From: Kiritimatiellia bacterium
GTDB taxonomy: Bacteria > Verrucomicrobiota > Kiritimatiellia > RFP12 > UBA1067
DNA: 64,000 nt
NCBI GenBank assembly: GCA_045545855.1
Contig: JAZQBR010000203.1
Span: 1,264 to 65,263, forward strand
Direction of reading: 5' to 3'
Under the pieces are notes generated by a model, which did no database searches, had not been told where the DNA came from, and saw only the letters and a list, made by a program, of their open reading frames with translations. Below are positions 2,788-61,655 of this stretch, piece by piece. The translations under genes were made by a program, and so were the position numbers. Numbering within the stretch: the stretch's first letter is position 1; each line of letters starts with the position of its first letter.

Positions 2788-4407
2788 TCAAGCCTGCGCG
2801 AGCTCTTCCTGGAGCAGCCGTCTCGCGGCCCCCGGGCCCGACAGAAGCCTCAAGAAGAACCCCTCGATTTTCGCGGCGAGCGGCGTCGCGGCAAGGTCGC
2901 TGCCGAATATGGAGGCGTTCGAAAGAATGTCTTTCAGCTGCCCGCCGTAGCTCGAGGGGTCGTTCCAGACAATTCCTCCAAGCTTCGCCTGAAGCTCTTC
3001 CTTGAGCGGGTCTGCGCTGACCTCCATCGGTTCGCCCTTGTCGTCCACGGCGAGAAGATAGCGCATCCACCCCGCTATGGCGAGCGGTATTGCGACAAGC
3101 GTGTTCAAGTCGCGGCCCTCTGCCATGTAGCTCTTTATGGTCTCGCCGAAGCGTATGCCGACCTTCTGCGACGTGTCGGTCGCGATGCGCCTCGGGTCGT
3201 CGGGCATGAACGGGTTGGGCAGACGCTCGCCGACAACTTCGTCGATGAACGCCTTTGGCGAGAGTATCTTCGGGTCGACAACTACAGGCAGGTCCTCGAC
3301 ATAGCCGAGCCGCCTGACGAGCTTCACGATATCGGGGTCTTTCATCTCCTCGCAGATAAGCGTGTACCCCAGCAGACAGCCGTACATCGACATCGCCGTA
3401 TGTAGCGGATTGAGGCATGTCGTCACCTTCATGCGCTCCGTCTTGTTGACCGTCGCGCGGTCGGTCATGTAGACCCCGGCCTTTTCGAGCGCGGGCCGTC
3501 CGTTCGGGAACCGGTCTTCGACGACCAGATACTGCGGCTTTTCGGCGTTGACAAAAGGCGCGATGAACGTCTTTTTGGACGTGACGATAGGCGTCATGCC
3601 CTCGATGCCGTCCTTCTTCAGCGACTCTTCGACTATTGGATGAGGCCTTGGGGTGATCTTGTCTATCATCGACCAGGGGAAGGATACCACCGTCTCGTCC
3701 GTCACGTAGTCGAGATACTCCCGGCTGGCGAAACCGCTTTCGACCCAGGCCTTGGCGATCTCGACGACGGACGCCTTGAGTTTCTCGCCGTTGTGCGAGC
3801 AGTTGTCCATAGAAACGACAGCCAGCGGCAGACGGCCGGCCTTGAAGCGCTCCAGAAGGAGCGCGGCGACAATGCTCATCGCGTGGCGCGAGGCGGACGG
3901 GCCTTCTTTCATGTCGGCCTCTACGACCGGCATGAGCGAACCGTCTGGCCGGCGCAGTTGATAGCCTTTCTCGGTGATTGTGAAAGAAATCATCTTGAGC
4001 GAGGGCGAGCGGAACACCGCCTTGAGGCGCTCGACCGACGCCGCATCAGAGAAATCGGCCTTGACGCCTTCTGCGACGCCGGCGAGCACTTCGCGCGACG
4101 TCGTGCCGTCGGGGTTCAGCAGCACGTTCAGCGTCAGGCAGTCGAACGGCGCGTATATCTTGTCTATCACATCGTAGTCGAACGTATCGCAGGCGATGAT
4201 GCCCGTCTCGGCGAGCCCCGCGTTAAGCAGAGTCTGGCTTATCGAGCCAATGAAGCCGCGAAAGATGTTGCCGGCGCCGAAGTGCACCCACTCCGGGGCC
4301 TTGGCCGTCGCCTCGCGCATCTTGGCGATGTCGAATTTCGGCAGATTCACGCCGGCCTTCTGCCACGCGGCCGCGTCTTTGGTTATCGATTCGAGTGTGA
4401 GTTTCAT
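2788..4407 (-). CDS. Mannitol dehydrogenase family oxidoreductase (mannitol 2-dehydrogenase / D-mannonate-fructuronate reductase-like)
   Basis: 539 aa. N-terminal Rossmann motif WVHFGAGNIFRGF plus a long C-terminal domain typical of the long-chain mannitol DH family (UxuB/MtlK-like). Confidence 0.7.
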   Translation of the reverse strand: MKLTLESITKDAAAWQKAGVNLPKFDIAKMREATAKAPEWVHFGAGNIFRGFIGSISQTLLNAGLAETGIIACDTFDYDVIDKIYAPFDCLTLNVLLNPDGTTSREVLAGVAEGVKADFSDAASVERLKAVFRSPSLKMISFTITEKGYQLRRPDGSLMPVVEADMKEGPSASRHAMSIVAALLLERFKAGRLPLAVVSMDNCSHNGEKLKASVVEIAKAWVESGFASREYLDYVTDETVVSFPWSMIDKITPRPHPIVEESLKKDGIEGMTPIVTSKKTFIAPFVNAEKPQYLVVEDRFPNGRPALEKAGVYMTDRATVNKTERMKVTTCLNPLHTAMSMYGCLLGYTLICEEMKDPDIVKLVRRLGYVEDLPVVVDPKILSPKAFIDEVVGERLPNPFMPDDPRRIATDTSQKVGIRFGETIKSYMAEGRDLNTLVAIPLAIAGWMRYLLAVDDKGEPMEVSADPLKEELQAKLGGIVWNDPSSYGGQLKDILSNASIFGSDLAATPLAAKIEGFFLRLLSGPGAARRLLQEELAQA

Positions 4408-4491
4408 TCTAGTGCCTCCATGATTGACCCATATTTTCTCATAAAGGCGCGGCTTGCGCTAGAGCAAAGTTGCGACTTCTGCGCCGTATTT

Positions 4492-5460
4492 TTACGACTT
4501 TACGGCCGTGACCAGCCAATGGGGCATGGGCGGCGGCGCCGGGCGCGTCTCCTCAGGCGAGAGCCCCGCCTCGCGCATCCATCCCTTCAGCTCGCCGTCC
4601 GCGAAAACCCAGCCGTTCTCCGTTGTAAGCGCCATATTGACGGCGAAGAGCGCCGAAAACTTCGGGGCCGTGCGTGTCGCGTCGGTCATCATGTCGAGCA
4701 CATACACCCGCCCGCCCTTTTTCAGAGCGCGCGCCGCGCGGCCGAGTATGGCGACTATCGCCTCGGGCGACTCCTGGTGAAGCGCTCCGAAGATCGTGAC
4801 GGCGTCGTAGGCCGCCTGCTCGTATTCGTCGACATGGTAGTCTCCCGCACGGCATTCTATTCTGTCCGACAGGCCGAACTGCTCCACGTATGCGGCGGCT
4901 TCGGCGCTGATCGCCTTGAGATCGACCGTGACCGCCGAAAGCCCCGCGTTCGCCTGGCACATGAGTATCGCGTACGCGCCGGGGCCGCCGGCGAGATCCA
5001 GGACGCGCCCGCCGAGCGCGCCGAGCATTGGCACCACGCCGCGGCCTATGCCCATCGCGCGCCCGAACATCGCCGCCGCAAACGCCTTGGTGCGCGCGGC
5101 GTCTTCGCCCAGGTGCAGCGAGGGACGCTCCACCGGGCGGCCCGTGCGGGCGAAGTCTGCCAGACGCCCCCACGCCGGGTAGACATCGCGGTTGTACCTG
5201 ATCGCCTTTGTCAAATCGGCCGGCCCGCCCGGCAGCAGCGCCGCCTTCCCGGCCGGTGTGTTCATGTAGACGCCTTCGCTCTTCTTGATCAGAAGCCCTT
5301 CCGCCACGCATGCATCCGCCAAAAGACGCATGCCGCGCCCGCTCGCGTCAAACTCGCCCGACTCGACTTTCGAGAATATGTCCAGATCTATCGCCGCGAA
5401 AAGAACCGCGCTGCCGTAATATGCGCTCGCGAGATCCACGATCTCCTGCACTGACTTCAT
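4492..5460 (-). CDS. SAM-dependent O-methyltransferase (class I, family 2-like with N-terminal dimerisation domain)
   Basis: 322 aa. SAM-binding LDLAGGPGAYAI (motif I) and downstream VYVLDMM acidic motif. The N-terminal winged-helix-like region is typical of plant/bacterial OMTs. Confidence 0.65.
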   Translation of the reverse strand: MKSVQEIVDLASAYYGSAVLFAAIDLDIFSKVESGEFDASGRGMRLLADACVAEGLLIKKSEGVYMNTPAGKAALLPGGPADLTKAIRYNRDVYPAWGRLADFARTGRPVERPSLHLGEDAARTKAFAAAMFGRAMGIGRGVVPMLGALGGRVLDLAGGPGAYAILMCQANAGLSAVTVDLKAISAEAAAYVEQFGLSDRIECRAGDYHVDEYEQAAYDAVTIFGALHQESPEAIVAILGRAARALKKGGRVYVLDMMTDATRTAPKFSALFAVNMALTTENGWVFADGELKGWMREAGLSPEETRPAPPPMPHWLVTAVKS

Positions 5461-8699: not shown

Positions 8700-10169
8700 C
8701 TACTTGCCAAGCCAGTCGTTGATGTTGAGGTTCTGGGTGAGGTCGTCTTGGTGTCCGCTATCAATCTCCTCCATGACTTTATCGATAGAATTGACAACCT
8801 TGGTGGTGAAAGCAAGCTTTATCTCGTCGATGAGTTCCTTGCGATTGATTGTCGTGTCGCCGCTCAGCGCGCTGCGCACCTTGTTCACGAGCAGGACATT
8901 CTTGTTGTCCAATCCGCGGACTTTGTCCAATTCCTGCTGGAGAGGCTCGACGATGTTTGTGATTACATTGGAACGCACATTATCTTTGGCTTTCGCCTCC
9001 ATGAGGTCCTGGAACTTTTTGTCGGCCAGTATTTCTTCCTTCGTCTTCACCCTTGTGTCGCCGGCGTTCGGGTTGTTCGCCAGAGCCTTTTTGGCCTTCT
9101 TCTCGATTTTTTCCAGGCTTTCTTTGATAATGGTCTTCTTCGCACTGTCAACCTTCGCGTTGAACACCTGCTTGTCATTCGGGTTCAAAAGGGCAAATGC
9201 ACTCTCCAAATCGTCGATAAGCGCTTCCTGGCTGGCGGTGAGCGTTATTTTCTGCTGATTGACCTTGCCGGCGCCGTTATTCACGGCCTTGCCGCTTTTG
9301 TCTTTCGGGTCTTCAGCCACGCGCTCTTCGCCCGCCGGCTTGCCGGCGCCCATGGCCTTCCCGGCCTGGGCCTTGTTCACCTGGGCGAGGAGTTCCTCCC
9401 TTTCCATGCCCGTATTGACCGAGAATGTGTTGCCGCCGTCCAGCATGAAAGTTACCACTATACTCGCGTCGTCCGCTTCGTGAAGAGAGGCGAGCGCGGT
9501 ATTCAACTGGATGGGATTGTTCTTGCCGGGCAGATTGCCCGGCCGATTCATGATTATCGCGATCTCGTTTGCAATCCCCTTCTGGAGGTTGCTGAGCGTC
9601 TCGGTTTCGCCTTCGCCCGTGTATTGAAGAATGCCCAGAATCGTATTCACCGACTGGTCCGCCTCTGACACCATGCTGTCGATCGTCCGGCTGTTAATCT
9701 CGTTGCGCTTCGTCTCGCGCGCTTCCATCGTCTCCTTGCTCACGCCTTTGTAGATATCTTCGCCGGTCTTAAGCGTCGCGGTGCCGTCGATTTCACGCTT
9801 TGTGTTGATTATGCCGGCATACTCGTCGATAATCTGGCGGACATCTGCGGCTGAGAGAGGCTTTATGCCGCCGGCCCTTATGACGTCGACCGACTTGCCG
9901 GCGATGCCGAGTTTCTCCTTGACGGACGCAATATCGTCGGGGGAGAGGCCCTCGCTCGCGAGCGCCCGGCAGAACGCGGTCTTGAGCGCCAGCGATTCCT
10001 CGGGCGATATGGGCGTATTGTTGAATATCGTCCACGTCTTGTGGTTGTTCGTGCGGTAGACGCTCGAACCGTCCTCGCTGAGCTTGAGCTGACCGATATT
10101 GTACTTGCCGCTGGCTGCGGCGCTGAACTGGTCGAGTGTCAAGTGCAAGTTGTCTAGATTTACGCCCAT
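8700..10169 (-). CDS. Hypothetical protein; candidate secreted effector encoded immediately downstream of a T3SS-chaperone-like gene
   Basis: 489 aa from ATG at 10169 (MGVNLDNLHLTLDQFS...). Polar, Ser/Thr/Asn-rich N-terminus, no TM segments, Lys/Glu-rich helical body, no recognisable enzymatic motif. Confidence 0.5.
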   Translation of the reverse strand: MGVNLDNLHLTLDQFSAAASGKYNIGQLKLSEDGSSVYRTNNHKTWTIFNNTPISPEESLALKTAFCRALASEGLSPDDIASVKEKLGIAGKSVDVIRAGGIKPLSAADVRQIIDEYAGIINTKREIDGTATLKTGEDIYKGVSKETMEARETKRNEINSRTIDSMVSEADQSVNTILGILQYTGEGETETLSNLQKGIANEIAIIMNRPGNLPGKNNPIQLNTALASLHEADDASIVVTFMLDGGNTFSVNTGMEREELLAQVNKAQAGKAMGAGKPAGEERVAEDPKDKSGKAVNNGAGKVNQQKITLTASQEALIDDLESAFALLNPNDKQVFNAKVDSAKKTIIKESLEKIEKKAKKALANNPNAGDTRVKTKEEILADKKFQDLMEAKAKDNVRSNVITNIVEPLQQELDKVRGLDNKNVLLVNKVRSALSGDTTINRKELIDEIKLAFTTKVVNSIDKVMEEIDSGHQDDLTQNLNINDWLGK

Positions 10170-10274
10170 CTCGAAATCCCTTGTTTGTCTTGTACCGGCG
10201 GCGGCTCCGCACACCTGTGCTGAACATGCCGACCATGCCTCTACATCATATATACACGCGACAACATCAAAAGG

Positions 10275-10730
10275 TTACACCTGCATCATGCGAAAATCTT
10301 CGTGTGATGCATCCTCCCGGACCTCAGACGGACGATAATCGGCGATTGCGCGGCTCCAGAACAGTGCCGTTTCGATGAAAGAGACGATTTTCTTCTCGAC
10401 ATCGTTGGCCAGTTCATCCGGAGATTCGTACTTTTGCAGGCGAAAGCGCTGCGCTGCGCTGTCGAGAGCGAGCGTGGCCCCTGCGGTCTGCGAAAAGAGG
10501 TTGTTGGCTTCCAGCAAGATCCGGCAAAGCCTTTCAGCGCCTTCCGGGGGCAGCCCGCCGAGGTCCGCCGACATCAGAACCAGATTCCTCTCGTCCTCGC
10601 TTTGAATCAGCACTCGCACCTTTGTACCGCCATCCTCGCTCGCCACCTCGAATGCTGTCGAATCTTCCACGACCTTGAGTTCAAGGTGGAATGCATTCTC
10701 CAATATTGATGCTATTTCTTCGAAAATCAT
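10275..10730 (-). CDS. Type III secretion class I chaperone-like protein (CesT/Tir-chaperone or YbjN-like fold)
   Basis: 152 aa from internal ATG (MIFEEIASILENAF...). Small acidic protein with the CesT-like pattern ...LCRILLEANNLFSQTAGATLALDSAAQRFRLQKYESPDELANDVEKKIVSFIETALFWS. Sits directly upstream of the candidate effector. Confidence 0.45.
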   Translation of the reverse strand: MIFEEIASILENAFHLELKVVEDSTAFEVASEDGGTKVRVLIQSEDERNLVLMSADLGGLPPEGAERLCRILLEANNLFSQTAGATLALDSAAQRFRLQKYESPDELANDVEKKIVSFIETALFWSRAIADYRPSEVREDASHEDFRMMQV

Positions 10731-10952
10731 GGTTTTGGTCTGGTTCTGTCTTGTTTCTCGCCTGCTCTTGCCTGCCAAGCGCGTATTATACCATAACTTG
10801 CGCCTGTTTGTCCATGTGCCGTAGATTATAGCTACGAATAATCAGACATATAAACACATTTATCCAATGAATAAATCAATCTTAAAGCACCTTATCCAAA
10901 CGAATCAACGCCGAAGCCCCGCTCGGTCAAACCAAACGGGGCTTCTTGATAC

Positions 10953-11030
10953 AGCAAAGGCCGCCCTCTCGGACGGCCCTCAAATGCAATCAGGTAAAAC
11001 TCACACCTCTCTCCAACTCCAACTCATCTC
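10953..11030. repeat. Left copy of ~78-bp direct repeat (AGCAAAGGCCGCCCTCTCGGACGGCCCTCAAATGCAATCAGGTAAAACTCACACC...)
   Basis: Near-identical copy at 12856..12932. The two copies bracket the Abi_2 gene and mark the high-GC to low-GC transition. Confidence 0.6.
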
Positions 11031-11300
11031 TCCAACTCCCAACTCCTCCACTCCTAACTCCCTCACTCCCACACTTCGCTACTCCCTCACGCCCCCACTC
11101 CTTCACGTCTCTCCACGCTTTCACCAAATTGACAAGTCCCTTCTTCCTCTGCACCCGGCTCACAAACAACAATACCTTCTTACCATCTGCACGCTCTACA
11201 CGGCTCAAACTCCCCCACTCCCTCTCTCCCACACTCTCAACTCTACATGTTTCTACACGTTCTACACGGCTATTTATATTCACCCCCAGCGGAGCGGCAA
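11000..11300. repeat. Strand-asymmetric CT-rich microsatellite-like array (AACTCC/CACTCC units)
   Basis: Runs of ctccaactccaactcatctctccaactcccaactcctccactcctaactccctcactcc. Overlapping ORFs (10946..11368, 10867..11424) are low-complexity artefacts. Confidence 0.6.
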
Positions 11301-11741
11301 ACGGCCAAGCGGCAACGCCCACGCGCCACCTCTTGCGCCCAGGCGCAAAAAGGCCCGGCTGGAGATGAATCCAACCGAGCCTCTTTACACCTGTTGCCAA
11401 TGGCAACAGCCAACGCCTTTTTAAGCAACTTTCTTCTCATCCCCCCTTGCGCCGCAAGAGATAATTCCGTACAATTACAACCAGCACGCCCTCGTAAGCC
11501 TCTGGAACTTCGGTTTCAAGCTCAAATTTCGAGGGTTTTCCATTATGCACAACATAATCCCACTACACTCGTCCGACACAATGATTGCACCCTGACACAA
11601 AGTCTCCACGCCACCCGATGGGCACATAGACAAATGCCTCGCGGGGCACTGAAACAGACCGACAAGAGACACATGACATCCTCATAACCAGCCGAAAGAA
11701 TCAAAAAACGCCCAACTTCTCACTTTTTCAAAGGCACCCCC

Positions 11742-11770
11742 TTGCGCCCAGCAAAAATTTTTGCTACAAT
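11742..11770 (+). promoter_or_regulatory. Candidate sigma70-type promoter for the Abi_2 gene (-35 TTGCGC, 17-bp spacer, TG-extended -10 TGCTACAAT)
   Basis: Read directly: cttgcgcccagcaaaaatttttgctacaat, located 37 bp upstream of the first ATG of ORF 11807..12856. Confidence 0.35.
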
Positions 11771-11806
11771 ACACTCAACATACGCGCCGGACCGCTTGCC
11801 CGCCTT

Positions 11807-12856
11807 GTGCGGGGAATGTCCATAAAGGGCGCGTTTCTTTCTATGCAGATAACAGTCAAATCATCATACCCCAAGGGCTGGCTTGACTATGACGGCCAAG
11901 TCGAGAAACTGAAGAAGCGAGGTCTGAAAATTGACGATGTGGAATTTGCCAAGCAGTTCCTTGCGTATTCCAACTACTACCGATTTACTGGCTACTGCCT
12001 CCGATTCCAGCACAAGGACGAATCCGGCGAGCGCGTGTTCAATGACGGTGTTTCCGTCTCCGACATAATCGACATCTACAAAATTGACAAAGGCCTCCGA
12101 GATTGTGTTTCAGATGCACTCGGAGCGATTGAGATTAGTTTCCGTTCCGCCGTTGCATACCATTTTGCGGAGGCACACGGGGCTTTTGGACATACGATAA
12201 AGGAAAATTTCGTCCGTCCATTCATAATGCGCCGGACAGATGCAAATGGTCGAGAGCAGCCATCCCCTTATGACGAGTGGCATGAGGGTCTTGTCTCTGA
12301 AACGCGGCGTTCAAATGAATTGTTCGTCAAACATTTTGAGGCGAAATATCTCCAGTTCCCCGATCTTCCTATCTGGACTGCGCTTGAGATATGCTCCTTC
12401 GGAACACTCTCCAAGATGTTCAAGAATATGCTGCGGTTTGACATGAGACCTATCGCCGCAAGATATTCTCTTCAACCTTCGACGCTGGATTCATGCATGC
12501 ATTCCTTCGTCTATGTCCGCAACATATGTGCGCACCATAGCAGACTGTGGGACAAGGAATTCGCCATATCTCCACAACTGCCGCCCGGCAGGAAATGGGA
12601 TGTCGTGCGCAATGCGAACAAAAAGTTGTATGCGGTAGCGATGTTGGTAAATTGGATGCTCGCGCATGATTTCTTCGGGAAAGCGATGCATTCAAACTGG
12701 AAGAAACGTTTTGAGACCGTCGTCGACTCTCTCTTCGATAGATTCCCAGAACTAGCACACCACACAGGTATTCCCGCCGACTGGAAGAACCAAGAAATTT
12801 GGTCTTCCATCAAGCCGGCTCAACCGCCCACGGAACCTAACCCATCTTCACTATAG
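11807..12856 (+). CDS. Abortive infection protein, Abi_2 family (AbiD/AbiF-like)
   Basis: Conserved Abi_2 block LEICSFGTLSKMFKNM and the signature VRNICAHHSRLWDKEF. Alternative start at 11843 (MQITVKSSYPKGW). Confidence 0.75.
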   Translation: MRGMSIKGAFLSMQITVKSSYPKGWLDYDGQVEKLKKRGLKIDDVEFAKQFLAYSNYYRFTGYCLRFQHKDESGERVFNDGVSVSDIIDIYKIDKGLRDCVSDALGAIEISFRSAVAYHFAEAHGAFGHTIKENFVRPFIMRRTDANGREQPSPYDEWHEGLVSETRRSNELFVKHFEAKYLQFPDLPIWTALEICSFGTLSKMFKNMLRFDMRPIAARYSLQPSTLDSCMHSFVYVRNICAHHSRLWDKEFAISPQLPPGRKWDVVRNANKKLYAVAMLVNWMLAHDFFGKAMHSNWKKRFETVVDSLFDRFPELAHHTGIPADWKNQEIWSSIKPAQPPTEPNPSSL

Positions 12857-12932
12857 AGCAAAGGCCGCCCTCTCGGACGACCCTTAAAAGCAATCAGGTG
12901 ATACTCACACCACTCTACAACTCCAACTCAAA
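12856..12932. repeat. Right copy of ~78-bp direct repeat
   Basis: GAGCAAAGGCCGCCCTCTCGGACGACCCTTAAAAGCAATCAGGTGATACTCACACC... matches 10953..11030 with a few substitutions. Confidence 0.6.
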
Positions 12933-13020
12933 ACTCATCCACTCCTAACTCCCCCACTCCTAACTCCCCCACTCTCAACTCCTCCACTCTCAACTCCCCC
13001 ACTCACTCACTTTATACTTC
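12900..13020. repeat. Second CT-rich microsatellite-like array (AACTCC/CACTCT units)
   Basis: ctccaactcaaaactcatccactcctaactcccccactcctaactcccccactctcaactcctccactctcaactcccccactcactcac. Confidence 0.6.
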
Positions 13021-13160
13021 CGCTCCTGCTCCTTGCGCTGCTCGTCGGGCGGGAGGGAGTCGAAGCGTCTGCACCAACGGCGATAGGCGATCGCGCCGGC
13101 AATCTCGATGCCAATGATAGCAACAACTACAACGCCAACTACAATCAGCACAATCTTCAT
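12990..13160 (-). CDS. Small single-pass membrane peptide (56 aa), translationally coupled to an upstream 37-aa peptide
   Basis: Manual translation gives MKIVLIVVGVVVVAIIGIEIAGAIAYRRWCRRFDSLPPDEQRKEQERKYKVSEWGS. Its ATG overlaps the stop of the preceding peptide (ATGA). Below the 60-aa cutoff of the ORF track. Confidence 0.35.
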   Translation of the reverse strand: MKIVLIVVGVVVVAIIGIEIAGAIAYRRWCRRFDSLPPDEQRKEQERKYKVSEWGS

Positions 13161-13273
13161 TTGGCTCCCTTATACTCCTTCGGCGGATTCAGAACGGCCA
13201 CAATTACGAAAACCACGCCAAGAAGCGCAACGCCCCCTAGCGCGACCTCAATGACATGAAATGCAAGTTTCAT
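13160..13273 (-). CDS. Small single-pass membrane peptide (37 aa)
   Basis: Manual translation gives MKLAFHVIEVALGGVALLGVVFVIVAVLNPPKEYKGAK. The stop overlaps the start of the 56-aa peptide. Confidence 0.3.
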
Positions 13274-13376
13274 GGTTAGACATCCTCTATGGATTCATTC
13301 CAAATATTATCGCCCTTACGCCTACGATTACGGGAACGGCCCCAAAGCAGAAGAAGGATAGGCCTAGGCAATTTAG

Positions 13377-13426
13377 AAATGATAAAACAGGTCAGACCTA
13401 TTTTATCATTTTAGTCTTCGCGGGGC
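13377..13426. repeat. 50-bp direct repeat copy 1 containing a 13-bp perfect-arm palindrome (GATAAAACAGGTC/AGACCTATTTTATC)
   Basis: aaatgataaaacaggtcagacctattttatcattttagtcttcgcggggc. A second copy lies at 13551..13600. Confidence 0.55.
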
Positions 13427-13550
13427 TTGACGCGATTGCGGCTCCCGCTGAAGGCTGCCGACAAAGAAGAGATAACGAAGATTTGATGTAGCGATATACG
13501 CCAAAAAAGCCGCGCGATGCGGGAGATTTCTGGATAATTGCGTATAGGAG

Positions 13551-13600
13551 AAATGATAAAATAGGTCAGACCTATTTTATCATTTTAGTCTTCGCAGGGC
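13551..13600. repeat. 50-bp direct repeat copy 2 with internal palindrome
   Basis: aaatgataaaataggtcagacctattttatcattttagtcttcgcagggc, 174 bp from copy 1. Confidence 0.55.
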
Positions 13601-13703
13601 GTGGCTGCATGGCGGCGTCTGTTGCGGCCCCAAAGAGAGGCTATGGTCACAAGCGTTGAATCGATCGTGAGGATAATTGCACCTAACACAAGAGCGATGA
13701 TCT

Positions 13704-16384: not shown

Positions 16385-19054
16385 TCAAAGCAGAGCTTTA
16401 TTCTTATATCGATAAACAATTCTCTCAACATCGGACTTACATTCATTATCGTGCAGATATTCTCGCATCGTATAACGCCGATTTTCAGAACCAATCTTAT
16501 CTCGTGCCCTTAACAAGTATTTGCCTACCAATTCCCAAGCAGGCGGCAGTAGGAATCCATGTTCCTCAAAATATTTCACCACATCATCAAAACACTGCAT
16601 GCTTTTAAGTTCATGATAATTTACATCGACAACCCACGGATAATCTTCGTCTCTCAAGTTTTTCAAAAATGGCAACATCCAATGCAAAACCGGATCCAGA
16701 GATTTTCGCATTACAGCTTCCCAACGCGCATTGTACGAACCATAAATCTTTTCATTCCATTCACACACTTTAGAGAGCCACAGCCACTTCTCTCGCAAAA
16801 GCGTTTCATTGGGGTGCGCGTCCAACGGCATTTTTTGCACCTGTCTTGCAAACACTGTCAGTAGTCTATCATAATCAGCATCATTGCAAATGAGATGCAT
16901 ACCGTCATCTTCTCTATGATGCACCATGGGGCGATGATGGCCCCCGTCCTCTTTTTCCAACAACAACACCTGCAGTAGCAATAGCCCGTCATCGCAATCC
17001 TGATCCGCAAACATGCGATAGAGGAACGAACCTCTTTCGTGCTGATCTGGATAATATTTCCAAGTCAGCGTAACAAGGCACTCAAGCAGGTCGGCAAACA
17101 AAGCCCTCTCCAGATTCAAATAAGTAACAGGGTTCTCAATGTCGCTTATTTTATCGCCAAGCCTTGCAACCGCTATCTTTGCAAACGCCAAGAATACATT
17201 CGAGAGACGCACCATACTTTTCTTTTGCAGAAGATCCATATCGCTTTGAAGAGCATAAAAGAGCGGTCGCAGATAACCATTACCATAGAACTTCTGGATC
17301 AACTCTTCAATGCGCGGACCACACGGCTCGCTTGCGACCATCTGTACAAACTCTTCAACCTGTGCTTTGGGAATGGCGACGGACCGCTCGGTATACCCTG
17401 TAAAATAATTATCATAATACGACGAAACTACCATTCTGTAATCGCGCATCGCATCAATAGACTTATAAGTCACAGCCCAATATTCTTGCATCGAGTCGTT
17501 AGTGTCTTGTCGATAACTTGATTTGAAATGCAAGACATGTGTCAGAAACAGCCATGTCGCCTTCTTCTTGAACTTATCCCGCTCGCAAGAGAATAACGCC
17601 AATAATTCTTCTTCCTGCCGTTTTCCCTCAGCAAGCAACTCATCTTTCTCACGATACAGAGTCTCATACGTATCTGGATAAAAATATCCCAACAACGTCA
17701 ACGAGATAAAGTCATCCTCGCAAATGCAAGGCCGAGAGTGATTTTGAGGATTTGTGTACAGATAATATAACTGCGTGCCTACATAATCTGCACACTGCCG
17801 GACGTGACGCATTGTCTTTACGAGCAGCGGAATCATCTTGGCCGCGCATGAATTCTCGTCCAGCGCAGCCAGTCGTCTATCTTTAAGCATTTTCGAGATC
17901 AACTCCATCAGAAGATTCGGCAAGCGCTCTTTGGGCAGTTGCGGCAATTTAAAAGCAACTGGAAATATTTTCTCCAAGTACTCGTGCCCCGCGCCAATCT
18001 GATTGTCTTTGCAATCGCCAACGATCTCCCGCCCCAACGCCATCTCGACATGCTGCTGATCAGCCAAAACAAGATAGGTTACTCTCGGGAAGTCGCAGTT
18101 TGTCCGAATGAGTCGGATAAGCTCAATTATTTCTTTGTGCATCAGTCGATCTACGTCATCTATCACAACCACCAACCGCTGGTTTTCAGGCAGCATACAC
18201 AACATCTCTCTGACGCGCGACTCGAGCGCCGCCGTTCCTGAAAAAGCACGGACGCAAGAATTTAAAAAGTTGATACAACCAGATTGGGCCGTCAACGCCT
18301 CCCATAGGCTCGAACTAGAAAGTTTCGCACCCAGAAGTCGCAAATCCATCGCACCACCCGGCAATCCCAGGTTAACGACAGTGCTGGCAAGAGTATCGCA
18401 CAACTCAGCCGCATACCCTTCTTTGGCCCTACTCCCCCAGGGCGCAAAGCGCACGAGAAAGAAGTTTTGCTCAAAATTGCGCAGCCGATCATCCAGAATA
18501 TTCACGACACTCGTCTTACCTTCACCCCATGCGCCATAAAGTGCAATAAACGCCGCCTGCGGTTGCCGACACGATTCTTTGATGGCATGGATAATCGCAT
18601 CCACAAAAGGCAATCGGTCAAGACGGTCTTCCGATGCTTGCGTAATGGGCGCATCAATTCCTTGTGACTCCCCGACCAACAGACACTTATATGGATGAGA
18701 TGCCCTCAATCGTTTGATAGCTTGGATGATGCTAGAGGCCATCCATGTGATCGCTAGCACCAGTATTATGGCCATGGCGCATTGCAGCAAAAGGCTGTTG
18801 CCCATTTGCTGACACACGGTGACATAGCACGAAGACAGACGGCTAAGGAGCGCGTGGCAGGTGGCAACCGCCAGAAAGGCGCCCGCCGCGACACCGGCAT
18901 ACAGAACGATGAAGCCGAAATGCACGACTATAAATTTCAGTATAGCACACATTGTCTTTCCATAGCTAACGATGTAATGCATCATGGTCGCGATAAACTC
19001 ACACGCACAGCATCTCCACCCCATATTGCAAGAAGATTTCATCAACCAATCCAA
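16385..19054 (-). CDS. KAP-family P-loop NTPase with N-terminal transmembrane segments
   Basis: Walker A IALYGAWGEGKTSVVNIL (KAP-type GxWGxGKS/T), Walker B VVVIDDVDRL, and 3-4 N-terminal hydrophobic helices. A large 889-aa protein of lower GC than the flanks. Confidence 0.65.
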   Translation of the reverse strand: MDWLMKSSCNMGWRCCACEFIATMMHYIVSYGKTMCAILKFIVVHFGFIVLYAGVAAGAFLAVATCHALLSRLSSCYVTVCQQMGNSLLLQCAMAIILVLAITWMASSIIQAIKRLRASHPYKCLLVGESQGIDAPITQASEDRLDRLPFVDAIIHAIKESCRQPQAAFIALYGAWGEGKTSVVNILDDRLRNFEQNFFLVRFAPWGSRAKEGYAAELCDTLASTVVNLGLPGGAMDLRLLGAKLSSSSLWEALTAQSGCINFLNSCVRAFSGTAALESRVREMLCMLPENQRLVVVIDDVDRLMHKEIIELIRLIRTNCDFPRVTYLVLADQQHVEMALGREIVGDCKDNQIGAGHEYLEKIFPVAFKLPQLPKERLPNLLMELISKMLKDRRLAALDENSCAAKMIPLLVKTMRHVRQCADYVGTQLYYLYTNPQNHSRPCICEDDFISLTLLGYFYPDTYETLYREKDELLAEGKRQEEELLALFSCERDKFKKKATWLFLTHVLHFKSSYRQDTNDSMQEYWAVTYKSIDAMRDYRMVVSSYYDNYFTGYTERSVAIPKAQVEEFVQMVASEPCGPRIEELIQKFYGNGYLRPLFYALQSDMDLLQKKSMVRLSNVFLAFAKIAVARLGDKISDIENPVTYLNLERALFADLLECLVTLTWKYYPDQHERGSFLYRMFADQDCDDGLLLLQVLLLEKEDGGHHRPMVHHREDDGMHLICNDADYDRLLTVFARQVQKMPLDAHPNETLLREKWLWLSKVCEWNEKIYGSYNARWEAVMRKSLDPVLHWMLPFLKNLRDEDYPWVVDVNYHELKSMQCFDDVVKYFEEHGFLLPPAWELVGKYLLRARDKIGSENRRYTMREYLHDNECKSDVERIVYRYKNKALL

Positions 19055-19946: not shown

Positions 19947-20633
19947 TCATCTACGCCGCCAAGACTTAGTCTCAACAAACGGCGCTTTGATTATCTTTTC
20001 CACCAACGGATAAATACCGGCATAATGCGAAGCGTTCAGACATTCGGGGAATTGGCCATGCGTTGCAGCCCATGCCTTGGCTCGCCTAATTGCAACCTCT
20101 GTTTGCGTCATCTTCCCTACATCGAACTGTGCTCCGCTCTTGTGATCATACTTCGGCATCAACTTGTGCAACAGACCATGCAGTTCATGCCTATCGAGAG
20201 GGAAGTTGTCCATTTTAGAACCATCCTCTGTGCAGAGGACTCCCCAGATTTCTATACACGGCGACATGAACGCCACATGGATACGATAAAAAACATCACG
20301 CGATTCGCATCTAGCTATATCGCGGACCTTGCAATCATCATCGCATCTTTCCGGGCACTTCGTCAAAACCGACCTGACCTCCAACATCTCCTTAGCCTTC
20401 GCATCGTGGTCGAAAACAACCCATATTTCCGCATTGGGATTATGACGCAAGTCCTTGGCAACTTCGACAGCAAACCTCAAAGCTCGTTCCAACAGGACCA
20501 CGGGCGACGAGACGGATGGCTTCTGCACAATCCTAATGTCGCGATTCTTCGCCAAAGCCTGCAAGTAGCCCAGCTCCGTCTTGCCCTCATGAAAGAGGTA
20601 GATGACAGGCGAAACAGCATAATCATTCGCCAT
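19947..20633 (-). CDS. RloB-like protein (AbiLii-like partner of AAA_21 ATPase)
   Basis: N-terminal VIYLFHEGKTELGYLQAL resembles the RloB ilvcEGekTEpnYf motif. Overlaps the 3' end of the upstream ATPase gene. Internal ATG at 20633. Confidence 0.5.
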   Translation of the reverse strand: MANDYAVSPVIYLFHEGKTELGYLQALAKNRDIRIVQKPSVSSPVVLLERALRFAVEVAKDLRHNPNAEIWVVFDHDAKAKEMLEVRSVLTKCPERCDDDCKVRDIARCESRDVFYRIHVAFMSPCIEIWGVLCTEDGSKMDNFPLDRHELHGLLHKLMPKYDHKSGAQFDVGKMTQTEVAIRRAKAWAATHGQFPECLNASHYAGIYPLVEKIIKAPFVETKSWRRR

Positions 20634-21900
20634 ACACCATCTCCCCTCCCAAGCTAGGCAACGCGCCATACAACCCCTGCAGATAGCCCTTCTCTAGATT
20701 CTTGTCGTGCCTTGGCTGAAACTGGTAAAGCGAATAGAGGTCTGACGAACCATCAACACGCTTCTCGGCGAACCAAATCTCATCGGTCCGCCAAATGTCG
20801 TGCGTCATCAGGTTTGTATCATGCATGGTTATCACAAGTTGTGCGCCATCGGCCCTGCGTTCCATGAAAGACTTAAGGAGGTACTTCATCAATACAGGAT
20901 GAATATGACAATCAGCCTCGTCTATAAACCATGTTCCAGTGCCACGATGCAACTGATACAGCATCGGCGAGAGATGGATCAACCGCACAGTCCCGTCAGA
21001 TTCGGACTCCGCCCGCAACGGAACGCCATTGTGCTGCAGGCGAAATTCCTCACCACTAATTCCGTTGGCATCCTTTTTAATCAAATAAAATCCTCGGCTA
21101 ATGCCCAATACACGAGCACCATCCCCTTTGAAAGGATTCATATTGAATATAATCTCGGCTTCCTTGCTGGACAAAGGCTCCCACGAGAGATCCGTGACGC
21201 CCAAGTCCGCACGCTTCAACAGCTCAAGCAGAAACGTCTTGAAGTCTTCTTGTTTGATAAAGGTGTAGAACGCCGCTGGATTCGGACGCGACTCCGTGCC
21301 TAACACGAACATTTGACTAAGCCCGACATAAGCCGACAGGATTACATCGGCCATCGCGATATCCAATTTGTTTTCCCTCAAACCATCGGAAATCAACTTA
21401 GGCAGATATAGCAGATTATCCGCCAATGTCCGTTGCCTATACCACTCAGCCTTATCAAGTCGCTCATCAAGTCCAAGGCGAGTTCCATTCTCCCTGTCGA
21501 ACAGAATTGATTCCCGTTCGCCACTGACCTGCCAAAGGGTTTCCCTCTTGACCGCAAGTCCATCCGTAGCGACTGCATACCTGAACATCAAGCCTTCATT
21601 GGAAAAAACAATGTCGAATCTCATTTCCGGTCTAATAGATTCAGACAAAGCAAACTGCATCCCACGCACTACAGAGCAATCGCCACGAAAAACCATCTGC
21701 TGAAATAAATCGACAGCCTTAAGGAGATTGGACTTGCCAGATGCATTAGCACCATATATTGCAGCCCCTCGCAAGACTGAAATACCATTCACATCGCGAA
21801 TATGGTTCTCATGCCGCGAAGTCTTGCGACCAGCCTCCATTGAGAAAGAGACAGGCGCATCAAACGACAAGAAGTTCTCGATTGTGAGATTTATAAGCAT
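20623..21900 (-). CDS. AAA_21/ABC-type ATPase (AbiLi/RloA-like)
   Basis: Walker A GANASGKSN, Walker B/D-loop WFIDEADCHIHP, H-loop ITMHDTNLM. 425 aa. Confidence 0.7.
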   Translation of the reverse strand: MLINLTIENFLSFDAPVSFSMEAGRKTSRHENHIRDVNGISVLRGAAIYGANASGKSNLLKAVDLFQQMVFRGDCSVVRGMQFALSESIRPEMRFDIVFSNEGLMFRYAVATDGLAVKRETLWQVSGERESILFDRENGTRLGLDERLDKAEWYRQRTLADNLLYLPKLISDGLRENKLDIAMADVILSAYVGLSQMFVLGTESRPNPAAFYTFIKQEDFKTFLLELLKRADLGVTDLSWEPLSSKEAEIIFNMNPFKGDGARVLGISRGFYLIKKDANGISGEEFRLQHNGVPLRAESESDGTVRLIHLSPMLYQLHRGTGTWFIDEADCHIHPVLMKYLLKSFMERRADGAQLVITMHDTNLMTHDIWRTDEIWFAEKRVDGSSDLYSLYQFQPRHDKNLEKGYLQGLYGALPSLGGEMVYGE

Positions 21901-24130: not shown

Positions 24131-24600
24131 GTTTAATTAGCCGTGTAGAACGTGTAGATCGTGTAGAATTATGCGGTGATGGTACGACGCTCGAATTTAT
24201 AGGAACCAAAATTTACAAGAAGTCCAACAGGATGCCGCGTGATCTTCAAGTAGTTTATAATCTGGGCAAAGTGTTCAGGAGCAAACGTTTTAACGGCCTT
24301 AAGCTCAACTATCAAGCTATCATTTACAAACATGTCTACAAAATACTCCCCGACACAATATCCGTCCCTGTCGAACACTTTAAGCGGTTTTTGTCGTTCG
24401 ACTTTATAGCCCGCAATTACAAGCCTATGCTCCAAGGCCGCCTCATAAACCTTTTCCAGCAATCCCGTGCCAAAGTATTCATGCACCCCATACGCAATCT
24501 GACCTACATCAGCTGCCAGTTTCCTTAATTCATCAGCGCAACCATCCATACTTCCCACCTTCTGCACGTTTCTACACGTTCTACACGGTTAGAACCCTTC
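24131..24600. mobile_element. ~470-bp cassette bounded by inverted arrays of CGTGTAGAA units, carrying a GxxExxY gene
   Basis: Left terminus ttaattagCCGTGTAGAACGTGTAGATCGTGTAGAA (24133..24168). Right terminus cacgTTTCTACACGTTCTACACGGttagaacc (24561..24600) is its inverted complement. The left end abuts the GT4 start codon and the right end overlaps the 3' end of the kinase-like gene. Confidence 0.55.
24169..24549 (-). CDS. GxxExxY family protein (PD-(D/E)XK-like small protein)
   Basis: MDGCADELRKLAADVGQIAYGVHEYFGTGLLEKVYEAALEHRL... contains the GLLEKVY = GxxExxY motif. About 126 aa from ATG at 24549 (the ORF track begins at an upstream GTG). Confidence 0.65.
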   Translation of the reverse strand: MDGCADELRKLAADVGQIAYGVHEYFGTGLLEKVYEAALEHRLVIAGYKVERQKPLKVFDRDGYCVGEYFVDMFVNDSLIVELKAVKTFAPEHFAQIINYLKITRHPVGLLVNFGSYKFERRTITA

Positions 24601-25465
24601 CCCTCCTTCTACACGGATATGCATCAATTCCCAACAGCCCTTTGACCTGCTTCTTAAACCAGGATTCATCCTTGCCCTCGACCCACTGCCCTGCGTCTTC
24701 CCAATCCCAGACATACAATTTGCCATCCACGATAGAACAGTTCCACGGAGCAAAGTCGCCGTGCGACAAACCCGCCCTTCTCAATTCGTCCAGAAATACA
24801 TAATGCTCCTTCTGCATCCGAACAGGGCTTTTGCCTTTCGGCAATACCGACTGCGCACTCCATGTCCATGCCCCATCATGCCCGACATCGCCTATGGCAA
24901 CAGGTACTTGCGCACACAAAGGCGTCATCATCAGCCTTTTCAGCACGTCCACCTCTTCCCTGATCGCCTCTGCCGCCTTATCTGTCCTTCCCAACTTCAA
25001 TATGATTTCATTTGTGTTTAACACAGAGTCACAGAGACGCAGAGGATTGGGAGAGTCAGAAGAAATCTCTGTGCCTCTGTGCCTCTGTGTTAAAACCTTC
25101 ACCAGCACCGTCAACTTGGACTTCGCCGAATCGTTTCCCATATAAAGCGTTATCCACTCTATCTTCTTTGCGAACTTTGCGTTCTTTGCGGCTAAATCAT
25201 CTATCGCTTTCCCTATTACCTCGTGTCCATCCAGTTCATCAAACCGCTTGATTGGCCCATGAACCATCTTCTCGATGGGCAGCCATGCGAACCATCCCAG
25301 AACCTTTACAGCCCACTTCAGCACCTTGCGCCCTGGCGTGTGCATCGCCAGCCCTGCCCGCTTGCTTGCGGCAGATGAAAGGTCAATCCACACGCGCGGT
25401 TTCGGAGACGGAAGGCCAAGGAATCTGTGCATAGATATTTTCATGTGCACCTCATGATACAACAT
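24581..25465 (-). CDS. Phosphotransferase-family kinase-like protein (APH/choline-kinase fold)
   Basis: Brenner motif LSHGDFAPWN and DWE motif VWDWEDAG. An in-frame palindromic element lies at 25019..25092. The C-terminus overlaps the cassette TIR. Confidence 0.5.
   Translation of the reverse strand: MLYHEVHMKISMHRFLGLPSPKPRVWIDLSSAASKRAGLAMHTPGRKVLKWAVKVLGWFAWLPIEKMVHGPIKRFDELDGHEVIGKAIDDLAAKNAKFAKKIEWITLYMGNDSAKSKLTVLVKVLTQRHRGTEISSDSPNPLRLCDSVLNTNEIILKLGRTDKAAEAIREEVDVLKRLMMTPLCAQVPVAIGDVGHDGAWTWSAQSVLPKGKSPVRMQKEHYVFLDELRRAGLSHGDFAPWNCSIVDGKLYVWDWEDAGQWVEGKDESWFKKQVKGLLGIDAYPCRRRGRVLTV
25019..25092. repeat. Palindromic element built from CACAGAG units (cacagagtcacagagacgcagagg ... cctctgtgcctctgtg) inside CDS
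   Basis: Tandem 7-mers on the left, their complement on the right, and a ~25-bp loop. Translated in-frame within the kinase-like protein. Confidence 0.5.
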
Positions 25466-28983: not shown

Positions 28984-29228
28984 ATTTAACCATGTAGAGC
29001 GTGTAAAGTTATGCCGTAATTGTGCGACGCTTTAATTTGCACGAACCAAAGTTTACGAGAAGACCTGCAGCGTTATGAAGAGTCGATTCATAAGCCTTTT
29101 CAAATAAGTCATTCTCAAAATATTCGTATACATCATACGCCACTTGCCCTACTCCCGAAGCGAGTTCTCTCAATTCATCTACTTCATCCATGCACCACCT
29201 CCACTCTACACGATCTACACGGCTATAC
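28984..29228. mobile_element. Degenerate second copy of the CGTGTAGAA-TIR cassette with a decayed GxxExxY gene
   Basis: Termini tttatttaaccATGTAGAGCGTGTAaag (28984..29008) and cacctccactCTACACGATCTACACGGctatac (29195..29226). The internal sequence is homologous to 24165..24330 but carries a deletion. Confidence 0.5.
29009..29191 (-). pseudogene. GxxExxY gene remnant (internal deletion)
   Basis: MDEVDELRELASGVGQVAYDVYEYFENDLFEKAYESTLHN...AGLLVNFGSCKLKRRTITA parallels the intact copy (…VGLLVNFGSYKFERRTITA) but lacks ~35 central residues. The listed ORF 29009..29305 reads through the flank. Confidence 0.5.
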
Positions 29229-33907: not shown

Positions 33908-35196
33908 TTGCCTCGCTCCTGTTTGACAACGTTTTCAAGCGCGGCAATGTAACGCTTCACGACAGCGGTCATCATGAATCGTTCTTTCACGTTCCTTACG
34001 GCATTGCCAGACATCTTTGCCCTCGCCGAATAATCAAGCATCAAGTTCTCGATGCATTCCGCCAACTTCTCTGGTCTTGTTACGTTGCATACGACACCGC
34101 CCGCAACGGATGATTCCGATCTTTCCTTTTCATTTAGCCGTGTAGAACAGGGAGAACATGAAGGATTTTCTACACGCTCTACATTTTCTACATGGTTAAA
34201 TCCATCGATTCCCAACACCCACGGCACCGCGCCACTCTTCTCGCCGCCGACGCACGGGACTCCATGCGCCATCGCCTCTATGAAAACCATGCCAAAACTC
34301 TCTTCCAAGGACGGACTGCAAAATACATCCGCCTCTTTCTGCAACGCTCGCCGTATCATCTCCGAAGAGCCATAACCTCGCAACTCTATGCACCCGGAAT
34401 CGATGAGACGACCCATGCCATTCTGCCGCATCCAAGGATCGGCACCGCGTTGATCCATATAATGTCCATACACCACCAGCCGCCATTCCGGGTGTCTCGC
34501 ATGGAGCAGCGCAAATGCCTTGAAAAGCGTCTTAGAGTTCTTGAGGCGACCCCACTGCGTGACACACAATATCGTCCGCGCTTCGAGGCGGATTTCAATC
34601 CTGCCGGCCTGGGCGGTTTCTTCCTTAATGGCATTTGGAATAATCTCCACCGGCTTGCGATAGAAGTTGAAGTTTCGCAGATCTTCCGCCATGTGCGGAG
34701 AAACGGTAGCCATGTGCTTGACATGTGGAAAAACAAAGAACTGTGAATATATCGCCTTGAAAAGCGATGCGGCATTGCGCATTGTCCATACGACCCGCCA
34801 AGGAGAGTCATGCGCCACAACAAGCGTTGGAACGCCACTTTTCAGAGCAGCACGTGCATACTGATATGTCCAGTTCGCCAGTATGACATCCGGCTTTGCC
34901 TTATGTATTTCGTCAACCATACATGACACTTCTTTTGAATAGAACGTCATGTATTGATAGCGGCAACGTCTTTCGGGAACAATCCTGATCTCCAGACGGC
35001 CAGCCGTATAGGTGGTTGCCGCGGAATGGTTCATGTCTGTGACGACTACAGAAACCTCATGCCCGGAATCAACCAATGCAGCGACCAGATCGCTTCCGTA
35101 GTTGAAATCCCATCTGACGGACGGCAATTGCCTGTCGAACTTGAATCGTTCTGCAAGACAAGACAGCGTGACACGCCCTAAAAACGCTATCTTCAT
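33904..35196 (-). CDS. Glycosyltransferase, GT4 family, with an in-frame miniature CGTGTAGAA-TIR element
   Basis: Starts at MKIAFLGRVTLSCL (ATG at 35196). C-domain ...ADVFCSPSLEESFGMVFIEAMAHGVPCVGGE... The segment GFNHVENVERVENPSCSPCSTRLNEKERSE is encoded by the element at 34133..34202. Confidence 0.65.
   Translation of the reverse strand: MKIAFLGRVTLSCLAERFKFDRQLPSVRWDFNYGSDLVAALVDSGHEVSVVVTDMNHSAATTYTAGRLEIRIVPERRCRYQYMTFYSKEVSCMVDEIHKAKPDVILANWTYQYARAALKSGVPTLVVAHDSPWRVVWTMRNAASLFKAIYSQFFVFPHVKHMATVSPHMAEDLRNFNFYRKPVEIIPNAIKEETAQAGRIEIRLEARTILCVTQWGRLKNSKTLFKAFALLHARHPEWRLVVYGHYMDQRGADPWMRQNGMGRLIDSGCIELRGYGSSEMIRRALQKEADVFCSPSLEESFGMVFIEAMAHGVPCVGGEKSGAVPWVLGIDGFNHVENVERVENPSCSPCSTRLNEKERSESSVAGGVVCNVTRPEKLAECIENLMLDYSARAKMSGNAVRNVKERFMMTAVVKRYIAALENVVKQERGK
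34133..34202. mobile_element. Miniature (~70 bp) cargo-less copy of the CGTGTAGAA-TIR element (MITE-like) inside a CDS
   Basis: tttagCCGTGTAGAACagggagaacatgaaggattTTCTACACGCTCTACATTTTCTACATGGTTAAAtcc. Both termini match those of the 24131 and 28984 cassettes, with only ~20 bp between arms. Confidence 0.55.
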
Positions 35197-61592: not shown

Positions 61593-61655
61593 CTCGTTTG
61601 TCTATTCGTAAAATTTTGTTCAAATAAGCAAAAAACGACCCCGCGCGTTGCTTAA
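61593..61655. repeat. ~60-bp direct repeat, left copy (gtctattcgtaaaattttgttcaaataagcaaaaaacgaccccgcgcgttgcttaatt)
   Basis: A near-identical copy lies at 63117..63180. The two bracket the DUF4143 ATPase gene. Confidence 0.65.

Follow-up and report, generated by a model that had tools for sequence, protein, structure and literature searches.

In a 64,000-nt stretch of contig JAZQBR010000203.1 from a Kiritimatiellia bacterium (hereafter the window), a gene of the Abi_2 family lies between two copies of a direct repeat, each of which continues into a G-free or G-poor, C-rich tandem array. The locus raises the question of whether the repeat delivered the gene, as an attachment sequence delivers a cassette, or whether the two came to lie together by another route. 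The initial annotation of the window took the former position and described a discrete gene cassette with a duplicated attachment or recombination sequence. That the gene is a discrete, mobile unit is well founded, as its promoter, leader and open reading frame (ORF) occur together in at least five genomic contexts among relatives; that the repeat is the attachment sequence of this unit is not. The repeat corresponds to a minus-strand RNA element, made up of the array, then a hairpin (A), then a second hairpin (B), and comparison with relatives indicates that this module marks the ends of polysaccharide-biosynthesis clusters. The two copies are probably the new and the old end of one such cluster, between which the Abi_2 gene came to lie through displacement of the old end and not through duplication of an attachment site. 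The gene was most likely trapped by ordinary recombination rather than by a dedicated cassette system.

Exact, gapless and BLAST matches agree that the direct repeat first noticed at 10953 and about 12856 is real. The 23-mer AGCAAAGGCCGCCCTCTCGGACG has exact copies in the window at 10953 and 12857 only, with 0 expected in shuffled sequence, and a second box, GCAATCAGGTRAWACTCACACC, which lies 10 nt beyond the 23-mer, likewise occurs only twice. Without gaps, the similarity extends over 97 nt (10930-11026 versus 12834-12930, 84% identity), and by BLAST it extends over 160 nt in direct orientation (10949-11106 versus 12853-13010, 82.5% identity), so the sequence is duplicated as claimed but the 78 bp originally assigned to it is too short. 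The AACTCC/CACTCC arrays said to follow each copy on the same strand are also present, with 0-3 G in 110-121 nt, and the pair of copies brackets one Abi_2 gene. From left to right, the two copies and the cluster genes next to them are:

10913-10945, minus strand: hairpin B of the outer (orphan) module, 15 pairs, GAAGCCCCGUUUGGU-UUG-ACCGAGCGGGGCUUC as minus-strand RNA
10955-10982, minus strand: hairpin A, copy 1, UGAGGGCCGUCC-GAGA-GGGCGGCCUUUG, a 12-bp stem with a GNRA tetraloop
10996-11116, no strand: array 1, an AACTCC/CACTCC-type microsatellite on the plus strand, 121 nt with 3 G and 53% C
12812-12856, minus strand: probable decayed hairpin B (B'), matching B at 23 of 45 positions without gaps (p = 6.5e-4 by shuffling)
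12859-12886, minus strand: hairpin A, copy 2, core GGUCGUCC-GAGA-GGGCGGCC as minus-strand RNA
12903-13012, no strand: array 2, 110 nt with 0 G on the plus strand and 52% C, period 15 (CCACTCCCAACTCCC), 92% matches
12990-13160, minus strand: small single-pass membrane ORF of 56 aa, the last gene of the cluster, with homologues in L025 and L049
13704-14576, minus strand: conserved GT4 glycosyltransferase gene, a candidate homology anchor

The cluster occupies about 45 kb, from 13.7 to about 58 kb, and its ORFs are nearly all encoded on the minus strand; Abi_2, the only gene on the plus strand, is convergent with the last gene of the cluster. The small membrane ORF, whose last codons and stop codon fall within array 2, has this array as its 3' untranslated region (UTR), and array 1 trails on as a degenerate G-poor tract to about 11290. 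Read as minus-strand RNA, array 1 is C-poor and rich in GGAGU, and the array as an element is a C-free, GGAG-rich 3' UTR. A coding reading of the array is ruled out by minus-strand stop codons in all frames, only the last codons of the small ORF overlapping it.

Scans of genomes and metagenomes, together with protein-based look-ups, placed the module on five contigs besides the window. Two of these are labelled Kiritimatiellia or Verrucomicrobia, and the module is probably common to a sub-clade of Kiritimatiellia. The genome scan, made with a 20-mer of hairpin A, returned 23 loci, 21 of which were chance terminator-like hairpins in unrelated phyla; the metagenome scan returned three, one of them (L024) by chance, and the five loci returned by a scan of viral contigs were all unrelated. 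Contigs carrying the GT4 orthologue P0140 have a single arrangement that lacks the module, which shows the module to be restricted to a sub-clade. The five contigs are arranged as follows:

L005 and L026: a single module copy between a GT2 glycosyltransferase gene and a convergent histidine-kinase gene
L025: a single copy in the order B, A, array, small membrane ORF, GT4
L014: two copies, with a DUF4143 ATPase gene between them on the opposite strand; duplication of 693 nt, 85.9% identity
L027: an Abi_2 gene 96% identical to that of the window, with the same right-hand junction; duplication of 221 nt, 92.8% identity

L025 is colinear with the window over 10913-11069, then 12853-13162 and then the GT4 gene; everything between the copies is missing, and homology to array 1 stops at about 11076. 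The locus is thus polymorphic in gene content. The junction at B', to the left of copy 2, is also present in L027. Further copies of the repeat are found in the contigs of relatives, in L005, L025 and L026 as single copies at the ends of polysaccharide clusters and not as flanks of a cassette. The element is rare and tied to polymorphism in gene content, rather than a common intergenic element unrelated to it.

In the order of transcription, the module would comprise the last gene, a C-free and GGAGU-rich tract, hairpin A and hairpin B. Hairpin A closes with a GAGA or GAAA loop, both of GNRA type, in all nine copies, and it contains an invariant U.G pair that is possible on the minus strand only. 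Hairpin B was found in six copies (win1, L005, L014b, L025, L026 and L027a), with pairing in 94.4% of cells on the minus strand versus 85.6% on the plus strand. When the six B + A sequences are taken together, the minus strand has 95.7% of cells paired and seven changes on one side of a pair that leave it intact, versus 77.8% and two such changes on the plus strand. B + A folds at -55.4 kcal/mol (z = -6.6) on the minus strand versus -35.2 kcal/mol (z = -3.7) on the plus strand, and copy 2 at -23.9 versus -10.2 kcal/mol, an asymmetry which arises because G.U pairs turn into C.A mismatches on the opposite strand. The hairpins lie 60-110 nt past the last same-strand stop codon, which is the position expected of an intrinsic terminator. 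Hairpins A and B in minus-strand RNA most likely act as a tandem terminator and insulator, and the candidate terminator pair would keep the cluster apart from the transcription unit that comes next, in the window that of a gene for a CesT-family chaperone. As with known tandem or bidirectional terminator insulators, two very stable GC-rich stem-loops follow the last stop codon, lying between convergent genes in three relatives and upstream of the next promoter elsewhere. Unlike those insulators, the module has no U tract, and its hairpins are preceded by a strand-asymmetric microsatellite, with no G on one strand and no C on the opposite one, which to our knowledge is not a described feature of terminators. 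No match was found to Rfam at gathering thresholds anywhere in the window.

The gene enclosed by the two copies comes with its own regulatory sequences:

11742-11770, plus strand: promoter P2 of the Abi_2 gene, TTGCGC at 11742-11747, a 17-nt spacer and TACAAT at 11765-11770, with TGC upstream
11782-11842, plus strand: structured leader of 18 pairs, ending in GGGCGCG-UUUCUUUCU (U-rich tract)
11843-12856, plus strand: Abi_2 gene of the AbiD/AbiF family, HEPN Rx4H motif RNICAH, alternative start at 11816

Both the sigma70-like promoter and the single Abi_2 gene had been recognized from the outset, and further analysis upholds them. The protein matches the full PF07751 profile (positions 1-184, E = 2.9e-47), the AbiD model of PADLOC (E = 1.6e-65) and the 'Abi family protein' of PDB 8VZ6 (E = 2.6e-24), and its HEPN Rx4H motif VRNICAHHSRLW aligns with RNSCCHHARVW in 8VZ6; the R and H of this motif were previously described as catalytic (PMC12373285). 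The leader overlaps the upstream ATG (11816), and the true start codon is ambiguous because the downstream ATG is ATT in L042. The ancestral stop codon at 12812-12814 is TAG in L027 and AAG in the window, where the ORF gains 14 codons and runs to a TAG that abuts hairpin A; the coincidence of stop codon and repeat is therefore incidental.

Homologues of the Abi_2 protein are abundant at 64-83% identity, and the genes occur in settings that have nothing of the module:

L028: Abi_2 homologue adjoining a ParE/Phd pair
L029-L034: Abi_2 homologue adjoining Dus and a tyrosine recombinase (integrase)
L035-L042: Abi_2 homologue inside arrays of PEP-CTERM genes
L043: Abi_2 homologue flanked just by a short antisense ORF (42 aa)

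The stretch homologous to the window runs from the promoter (about 11703-11754) to the ancestral stop codon or a little short of it (12677-12811), and hairpin A and the array are absent from all of these loci (L028-L043). The P2 hexamers are kept, with a variable spacer, in all seven Abi_2 contexts compared, including the window, and P2 is conserved in L027, L029-L041 and L042. The leader is nearly invariant across contexts, L027, L029, L035, L038 and L042 among them, whose ORFs are 72-80% identical. The Abi_2 unit is independent of the repeat: at least four contexts are free of the repeat, all with the same promoter and leader. Most close homologues are on short contigs of 1.0-1.9 kb, which suggests that assemblies often break around the Abi_2 gene, through either flanking repeats or strain variation.

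How the gene came to be enclosed is best judged from the extent of the duplications, which always start at the outer edge of the module, at hairpin A, and reach a variable distance into the last gene of the cluster. In L014, the inner copy follows a full-length GT2 gene (3863-4690) and the outer copy follows a GT2 gene cut to its last 198 codons (1662-2258), the duplication including 600 nt of GT2 coding sequence, and in L027 each of the two copies includes 135 nt of the GT2 3' end. L014 and L027 thus have a full distal end with a diverged, 5'-truncated copy after it, and the window retains just a weak fragment of a group-1 glycosyltransferase (GT1) gene. The variable inner boundary of the duplication and the 82-93% identity of the copies argue for displacement rather than site-specific recombination, as do the truncated last-gene fragment by the outer copy, the variety of trapped genes and the lack of a recombinase.

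We infer that incoming DNA was anchored by homology in conserved distal genes of the cluster, such as the GT4 gene. It would have brought in the end module of the donor (small membrane ORF, array 2, A2 and B') along with the adjacent gene of the donor, a convergent and self-contained AbiD/AbiF module comprising promoter, structured leader RNA and HEPN toxin, and its other end would have been joined illegitimately, inside or past the last gene of the recipient. The old end of the recipient (glycosyltransferase fragment, array 1, A1 and B) would have been displaced outward as a decaying orphan, leaving Abi_2 and the cluster to converge on one terminator module while the downstream operon would retain one as well. 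The GT4 gene is 72-86% identical in L005, L014, L025 and L026 and has hundreds of orthologues, but no donor-recipient pair was identified. Displacement of 3' ends through homology-facilitated illegitimate recombination is a process described for Rhs loci and for effector-immunity arrays of the Vibrio type VI secretion system (T6SS) (PMC5361080; PMC3240628). The locus resembles those orphan ends in having a conserved candidate anchor upstream, a distal segment that would be new and carries extra genes, and an old, cut-off end that persists immediately downstream as a direct repeat, diverged and of variable length, and a dedicated recombinase is unnecessary. Unlike those orphan ends, the displaced unit is mostly non-coding (array and hairpins, with or without a 3' fragment of a glycosyltransferase gene) rather than a toxin tip or immunity gene, the trapped gene is convergent and functionally unrelated to the locus, and the mechanism is deduced from four loci.

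Several observations weigh against this account. The array and A parts of the L014 copies are 97% identical to each other whereas the coding parts are about 84% identical, which would require gene conversion or a more complicated history. The inner copy carries hairpin B in L014, but it is the outer copy that has the intact B in the window and L027. What is left of the orphan in the window comes from the middle of a gene rather than from a clean 3' end, and extra deletions therefore have to be postulated. The module is on six contigs only, the window included, and none of the six is a same-strain empty site. With regard to the hairpins, there is no canonical U tract at A or B, and a consensus terminator scan calls neither; hairpin A is followed by just UUU, which is partly within the extended stem, and hairpin B by GGCGUUGAUU. 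No pair is changed on both sides in the six sequences compared, so that structural support comes from the G.U asymmetry in six to nine related sequences, and one hairpin B substitution in L027a suits the plus strand better. Given the lack of two-sided changes and of a U tract, terminator function is a prediction.

Integration of a circular intermediate carrying the homologous end by a Campbell-type single crossover would yield the same picture as displacement. Another possibility, somewhat doubtful in its own right and compatible with displacement, is that the array works on the plus strand, where it would load Rho and stop outside transcription that runs antisense into the cluster. The module would then be a bidirectional insulator, hence the retention of both copies, and the outside transcription would come from Abi_2 in the window, the histidine-kinase operon in L005 and L026, and the ATPase gene in L014. 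Rho utilization (rut) sites are C-rich, G-poor and unstructured. Both arrays provide at least about 70 nt of such sequence on the plus strand, as which they are predicted to be fully unpaired, and few tracts in the window are as poor in G. The nine copies differ in length and sequence, but every one has stayed G-poor (0-5 G in the 62-129 nt after hairpin A), and a plus-strand gene converges on the module in L005, L014b and L026. The rho gene itself lies outside the window. Set against this, the entire window is C-skewed on the plus strand, the property under selection could instead be the C-poverty of the minus-strand 3' UTR, and slippage of one repeat unit would preserve composition without selection; the array may be a product of slippage without function.

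It is less probable that the array is a selected element combining a Rho-loading insulator with a breakpoint hotspot, at which R-loops of the G-rich RNA or microhomology would lead to repeated capture of defense genes such as Abi_2 and the DUF4143 ATPase gene, in loose analogy to immunoglobulin switch regions. The full-length GT2 gene of L014 contains an inverted AACTCC-type array (4466-4520), which is in frame, encodes TPNSHTTNSNSNSKLQLS and is absent from the L005 orthologue. It lies 30 nt past the inner end of the 693-nt duplication, a location that fits with arrays marking breakpoints.

The attachment-site explanation with which this analysis began, in which hairpin A and the array form a site recognized by a recombinase encoded elsewhere and the Abi_2 cassette moves in the manner of an integron cassette or islet, is very improbable. 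It draws on the direct repeats that flank a single gene, the flanking of the same gene in L027 with the same right-hand junction, the folded hairpin at the junction, and the many Abi_2 homologues on contigs of 1.4-1.9 kb, which would suggest flanking repeats. However, wherever else the cassette occurs the repeat is missing, L005, L025 and L026 have the repeat singly, without the cassette, and L014 encloses a different gene plus 600 nt of glycosyltransferase sequence. Islets typically have short, near-identical cores and fixed boundaries, whereas here the duplicated lengths are 160, 221 and 693 nt, coding sequence included, the copies are 82.5%, 92.8% and 85.9% identical, and the inner boundary differs at each locus. 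There is no invariant crossover core beyond the generic hairpin, which occurs by chance in 21 unrelated genomes. Among window ORFs of at least 100 aa, no match was found to integrase, transposase, PF00589 or other recombinase families in Pfam, and the window has no tRNA able to act as an integration target. The resemblance to integron cassettes and attC sites lies in a single gene by a folded imperfect palindrome with repeats on both sides. Unlike those systems, there is no IntI and there are no RYYYAAC/GTTRRRY boxes, the cassette has its own promoter, and the repeat is variable in length, includes coding DNA and does not travel with the gene.

Least probable of the functional explanations is that the minus-strand end, (GGAGU)n followed by A and B, yields a 3'-UTR-derived small RNA (sRNA), whose gene was duplicated and which would serve as a sponge for a factor that binds GGA or Shine-Dalgarno sequences, such as a CsrA-like protein or 30S subunits. 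Some 10-14 GGAG motifs per 100 nt lie directly upstream of a very stable, terminator-like hairpin, and this composition is conserved across relatives, but there is no Rfam match and no internal promoter, the GGA motifs are not in hairpin loops, the sequence and length of the array (62-129 nt) are poorly conserved, and copy 1 is preceded by just a decayed scar, with nothing for it to be processed from. A transposon or miniature inverted-repeat transposable element is ruled out, as the repeats are direct and there is no transposase, and an assembly artefact is ruled out by copies that are just 82.5% identical.

Displacement of an old cluster end leaves the trapped gene itself to be accounted for, and the Abi_2 gene looks like an RNA-protein toxin module of the AbiF type. 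AbiF-type proteins are toxins that are neutralized, in the manner of type III toxin-antitoxin systems, by an upstream noncoding RNA with abiF motifs (PMC12373285), and the abiF RNA motif (Rfam RF03085) was first described previously (PMC5737381). The sequence between copy 1 and the Abi_2 gene contains one candidate for this motif among other remnants:

11098-11193, minus strand: GT1 fragment of about 32 codons (GKKVLLFVSRVQRKKGLVNLVKAW), PF00534 profile positions 11-42
11186-11290, no strand: mosaic scar of two TCTACACGN tandem motifs (11186-11205 and 11252-11270) and a piece of array (11205-11245)
11447-11475, plus strand: promoter-like P1, with TTGCGC, a 17-nt spacer and TACAAT, a paralogue of the Abi_2 promoter
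11490-11535, plus strand: candidate abiF RNA motif (RF03085), a hairpin followed by UUUU

The GT1 fragment, which by its profile match appears to be a remnant of an older cluster gene within the scar, scores E = 4.4e-4 and 20.3 bits, under the Pfam cut-off of 26.4. The promoter pattern shared by P1 and P2 has two matches in the window versus 0.01 expected. The abiF candidate, which lies downstream of P1 and about 300 nt upstream of the Abi_2 gene, matches the conserved loop nucleotides AAGCCUCU and GCUCAAAU exactly and scores below threshold, with 27.4 bits where the gathering score is 37 (E = 0.0074 for the local search, 0.043 over 2.6 kb). It is missing from L027, whose Abi_2 gene is 96% identical, and no ORF remnant or cut-off second Abi_2 gene was found downstream of it; it is possibly an orphan or auxiliary antitoxin-type RNA. 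RF03085 gives no match to the leader (11782-11842) at E <= 10. The leader looks like an attenuator or a candidate antitoxin RNA of the Abi_2 module, and of the two RNAs it is the likelier cognate.

The likeness to known AbiD/AbiF modules, for example AbiFCd-RCd22 of C. difficile (PMC12373285; PDB 8VZ6), extends to an Abi_2 domain with HEPN Rx4H motif, a sigma-70-type promoter of its own, a structured RNA that ends U-rich and immediately precedes the ORF, a same-strand candidate for the abiF motif farther upstream, and occurrence as a single-gene unit in many contexts. Unlike those modules, the sole match to the abiF model is sub-threshold, lies about 300 nt upstream behind a separate promoter and is missing in L027; the conserved leader is not recognized by RF03085; the host belongs to the PVC group (Kiritimatiellia) rather than to Bacillota or Pseudomonadota; and the site is the end of a polysaccharide cluster rather than a prophage or plasmid. 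Exact-sequence look-ups of the Abi_2 protein (both starts), the 56-aa ORF and the CesT protein returned no record, and megablast against plasmids returned no match. Where the Abi_2 homologue adjoins the tyrosine recombinase, a region downstream of the recombinase has PEP-CTERM-type genes that differ in order and orientation between samples (L029 13216-19629 versus L032 10165-13252 and L033 7372-8715), and this region looks invertible, in the manner of a shufflon.

The 9-bp motif of the scar, which mostly forms tandems of two or three between genes of the low-GC cluster, may be a promoter element or a site for a regulator; TCTACACGG has eight exact occurrences in the window versus 0.2 expected, and the motif at 24141-24167 is directly upstream of the start of a GT4 gene. 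In the space between the small membrane ORFs and the GT4 gene, a 68-nt direct repeat of 88% identity (13375-13442 and 13549-13616) holds in each copy a 35-nt near-perfect palindrome, AAATGATAAAAYAGGTCAGACCTATTTTATCATTT. Cluster products include GT4 glycosyltransferases, a WecG-family transferase, acyltransferases, a Wzy-like polymerase, pyruvyl transferases and a flippase-like protein, and defense-type genes are found within the cluster and at its edges. The 504-aa protein adjoining the CesT gene has no Pfam match, and the two may form a chaperone-effector pair; the CesT gene has a good minus-strand promoter at 10814-10785. The GC content is 0.60-0.68 up to 8 kb, 0.565 at 8-10 kb and about 0.50-0.52 from 10 kb, so that the fall pointed out initially is real but is gradual over 8-11 kb rather than a step exactly at the repeat. 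The remaining features are:

8700-10778, minus strand: gene for a CesT-family type III secretion chaperone (PF05932, E = 3.3e-8) and its 504-aa neighbor
11186-11205, 11252-11270, 24141-24167 (minus strand), 24562-24616, 29205-29222, 34138-34190 and 61540-61548: sites of the 9-bp motif TCTACACGN
16385-19054, 20623-21900, 44662-47074, 50353-51684 and 61652-63043, all on the cluster strand: defense-type genes (KAP NTPase, three AAA_15/AAA_21 ATPases, GmrSD nuclease and DUF4143 ATPase)

The locus combines a defense family and a type of recombination scar that are both known with a previously undescribed module that ends a gene cluster; it is an ordinary process in a new setting, and none of these findings overturns current views. 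It indicates that an anti-phage module of one gene can become established at the margin of a surface-polysaccharide locus without the machinery of a mobile element, and it provides a worked example, from beyond the toxin loci in which displacement has been described, of how this process forms orphan ends. AbiF-type modules, which have been proposed as relatives of the ancestor of Cas13, would be extended to the PVC group, with the highly conserved leader RNA as a candidate antitoxin, and the G-free array beside GNRA-capped hairpins is a compact candidate insulator.

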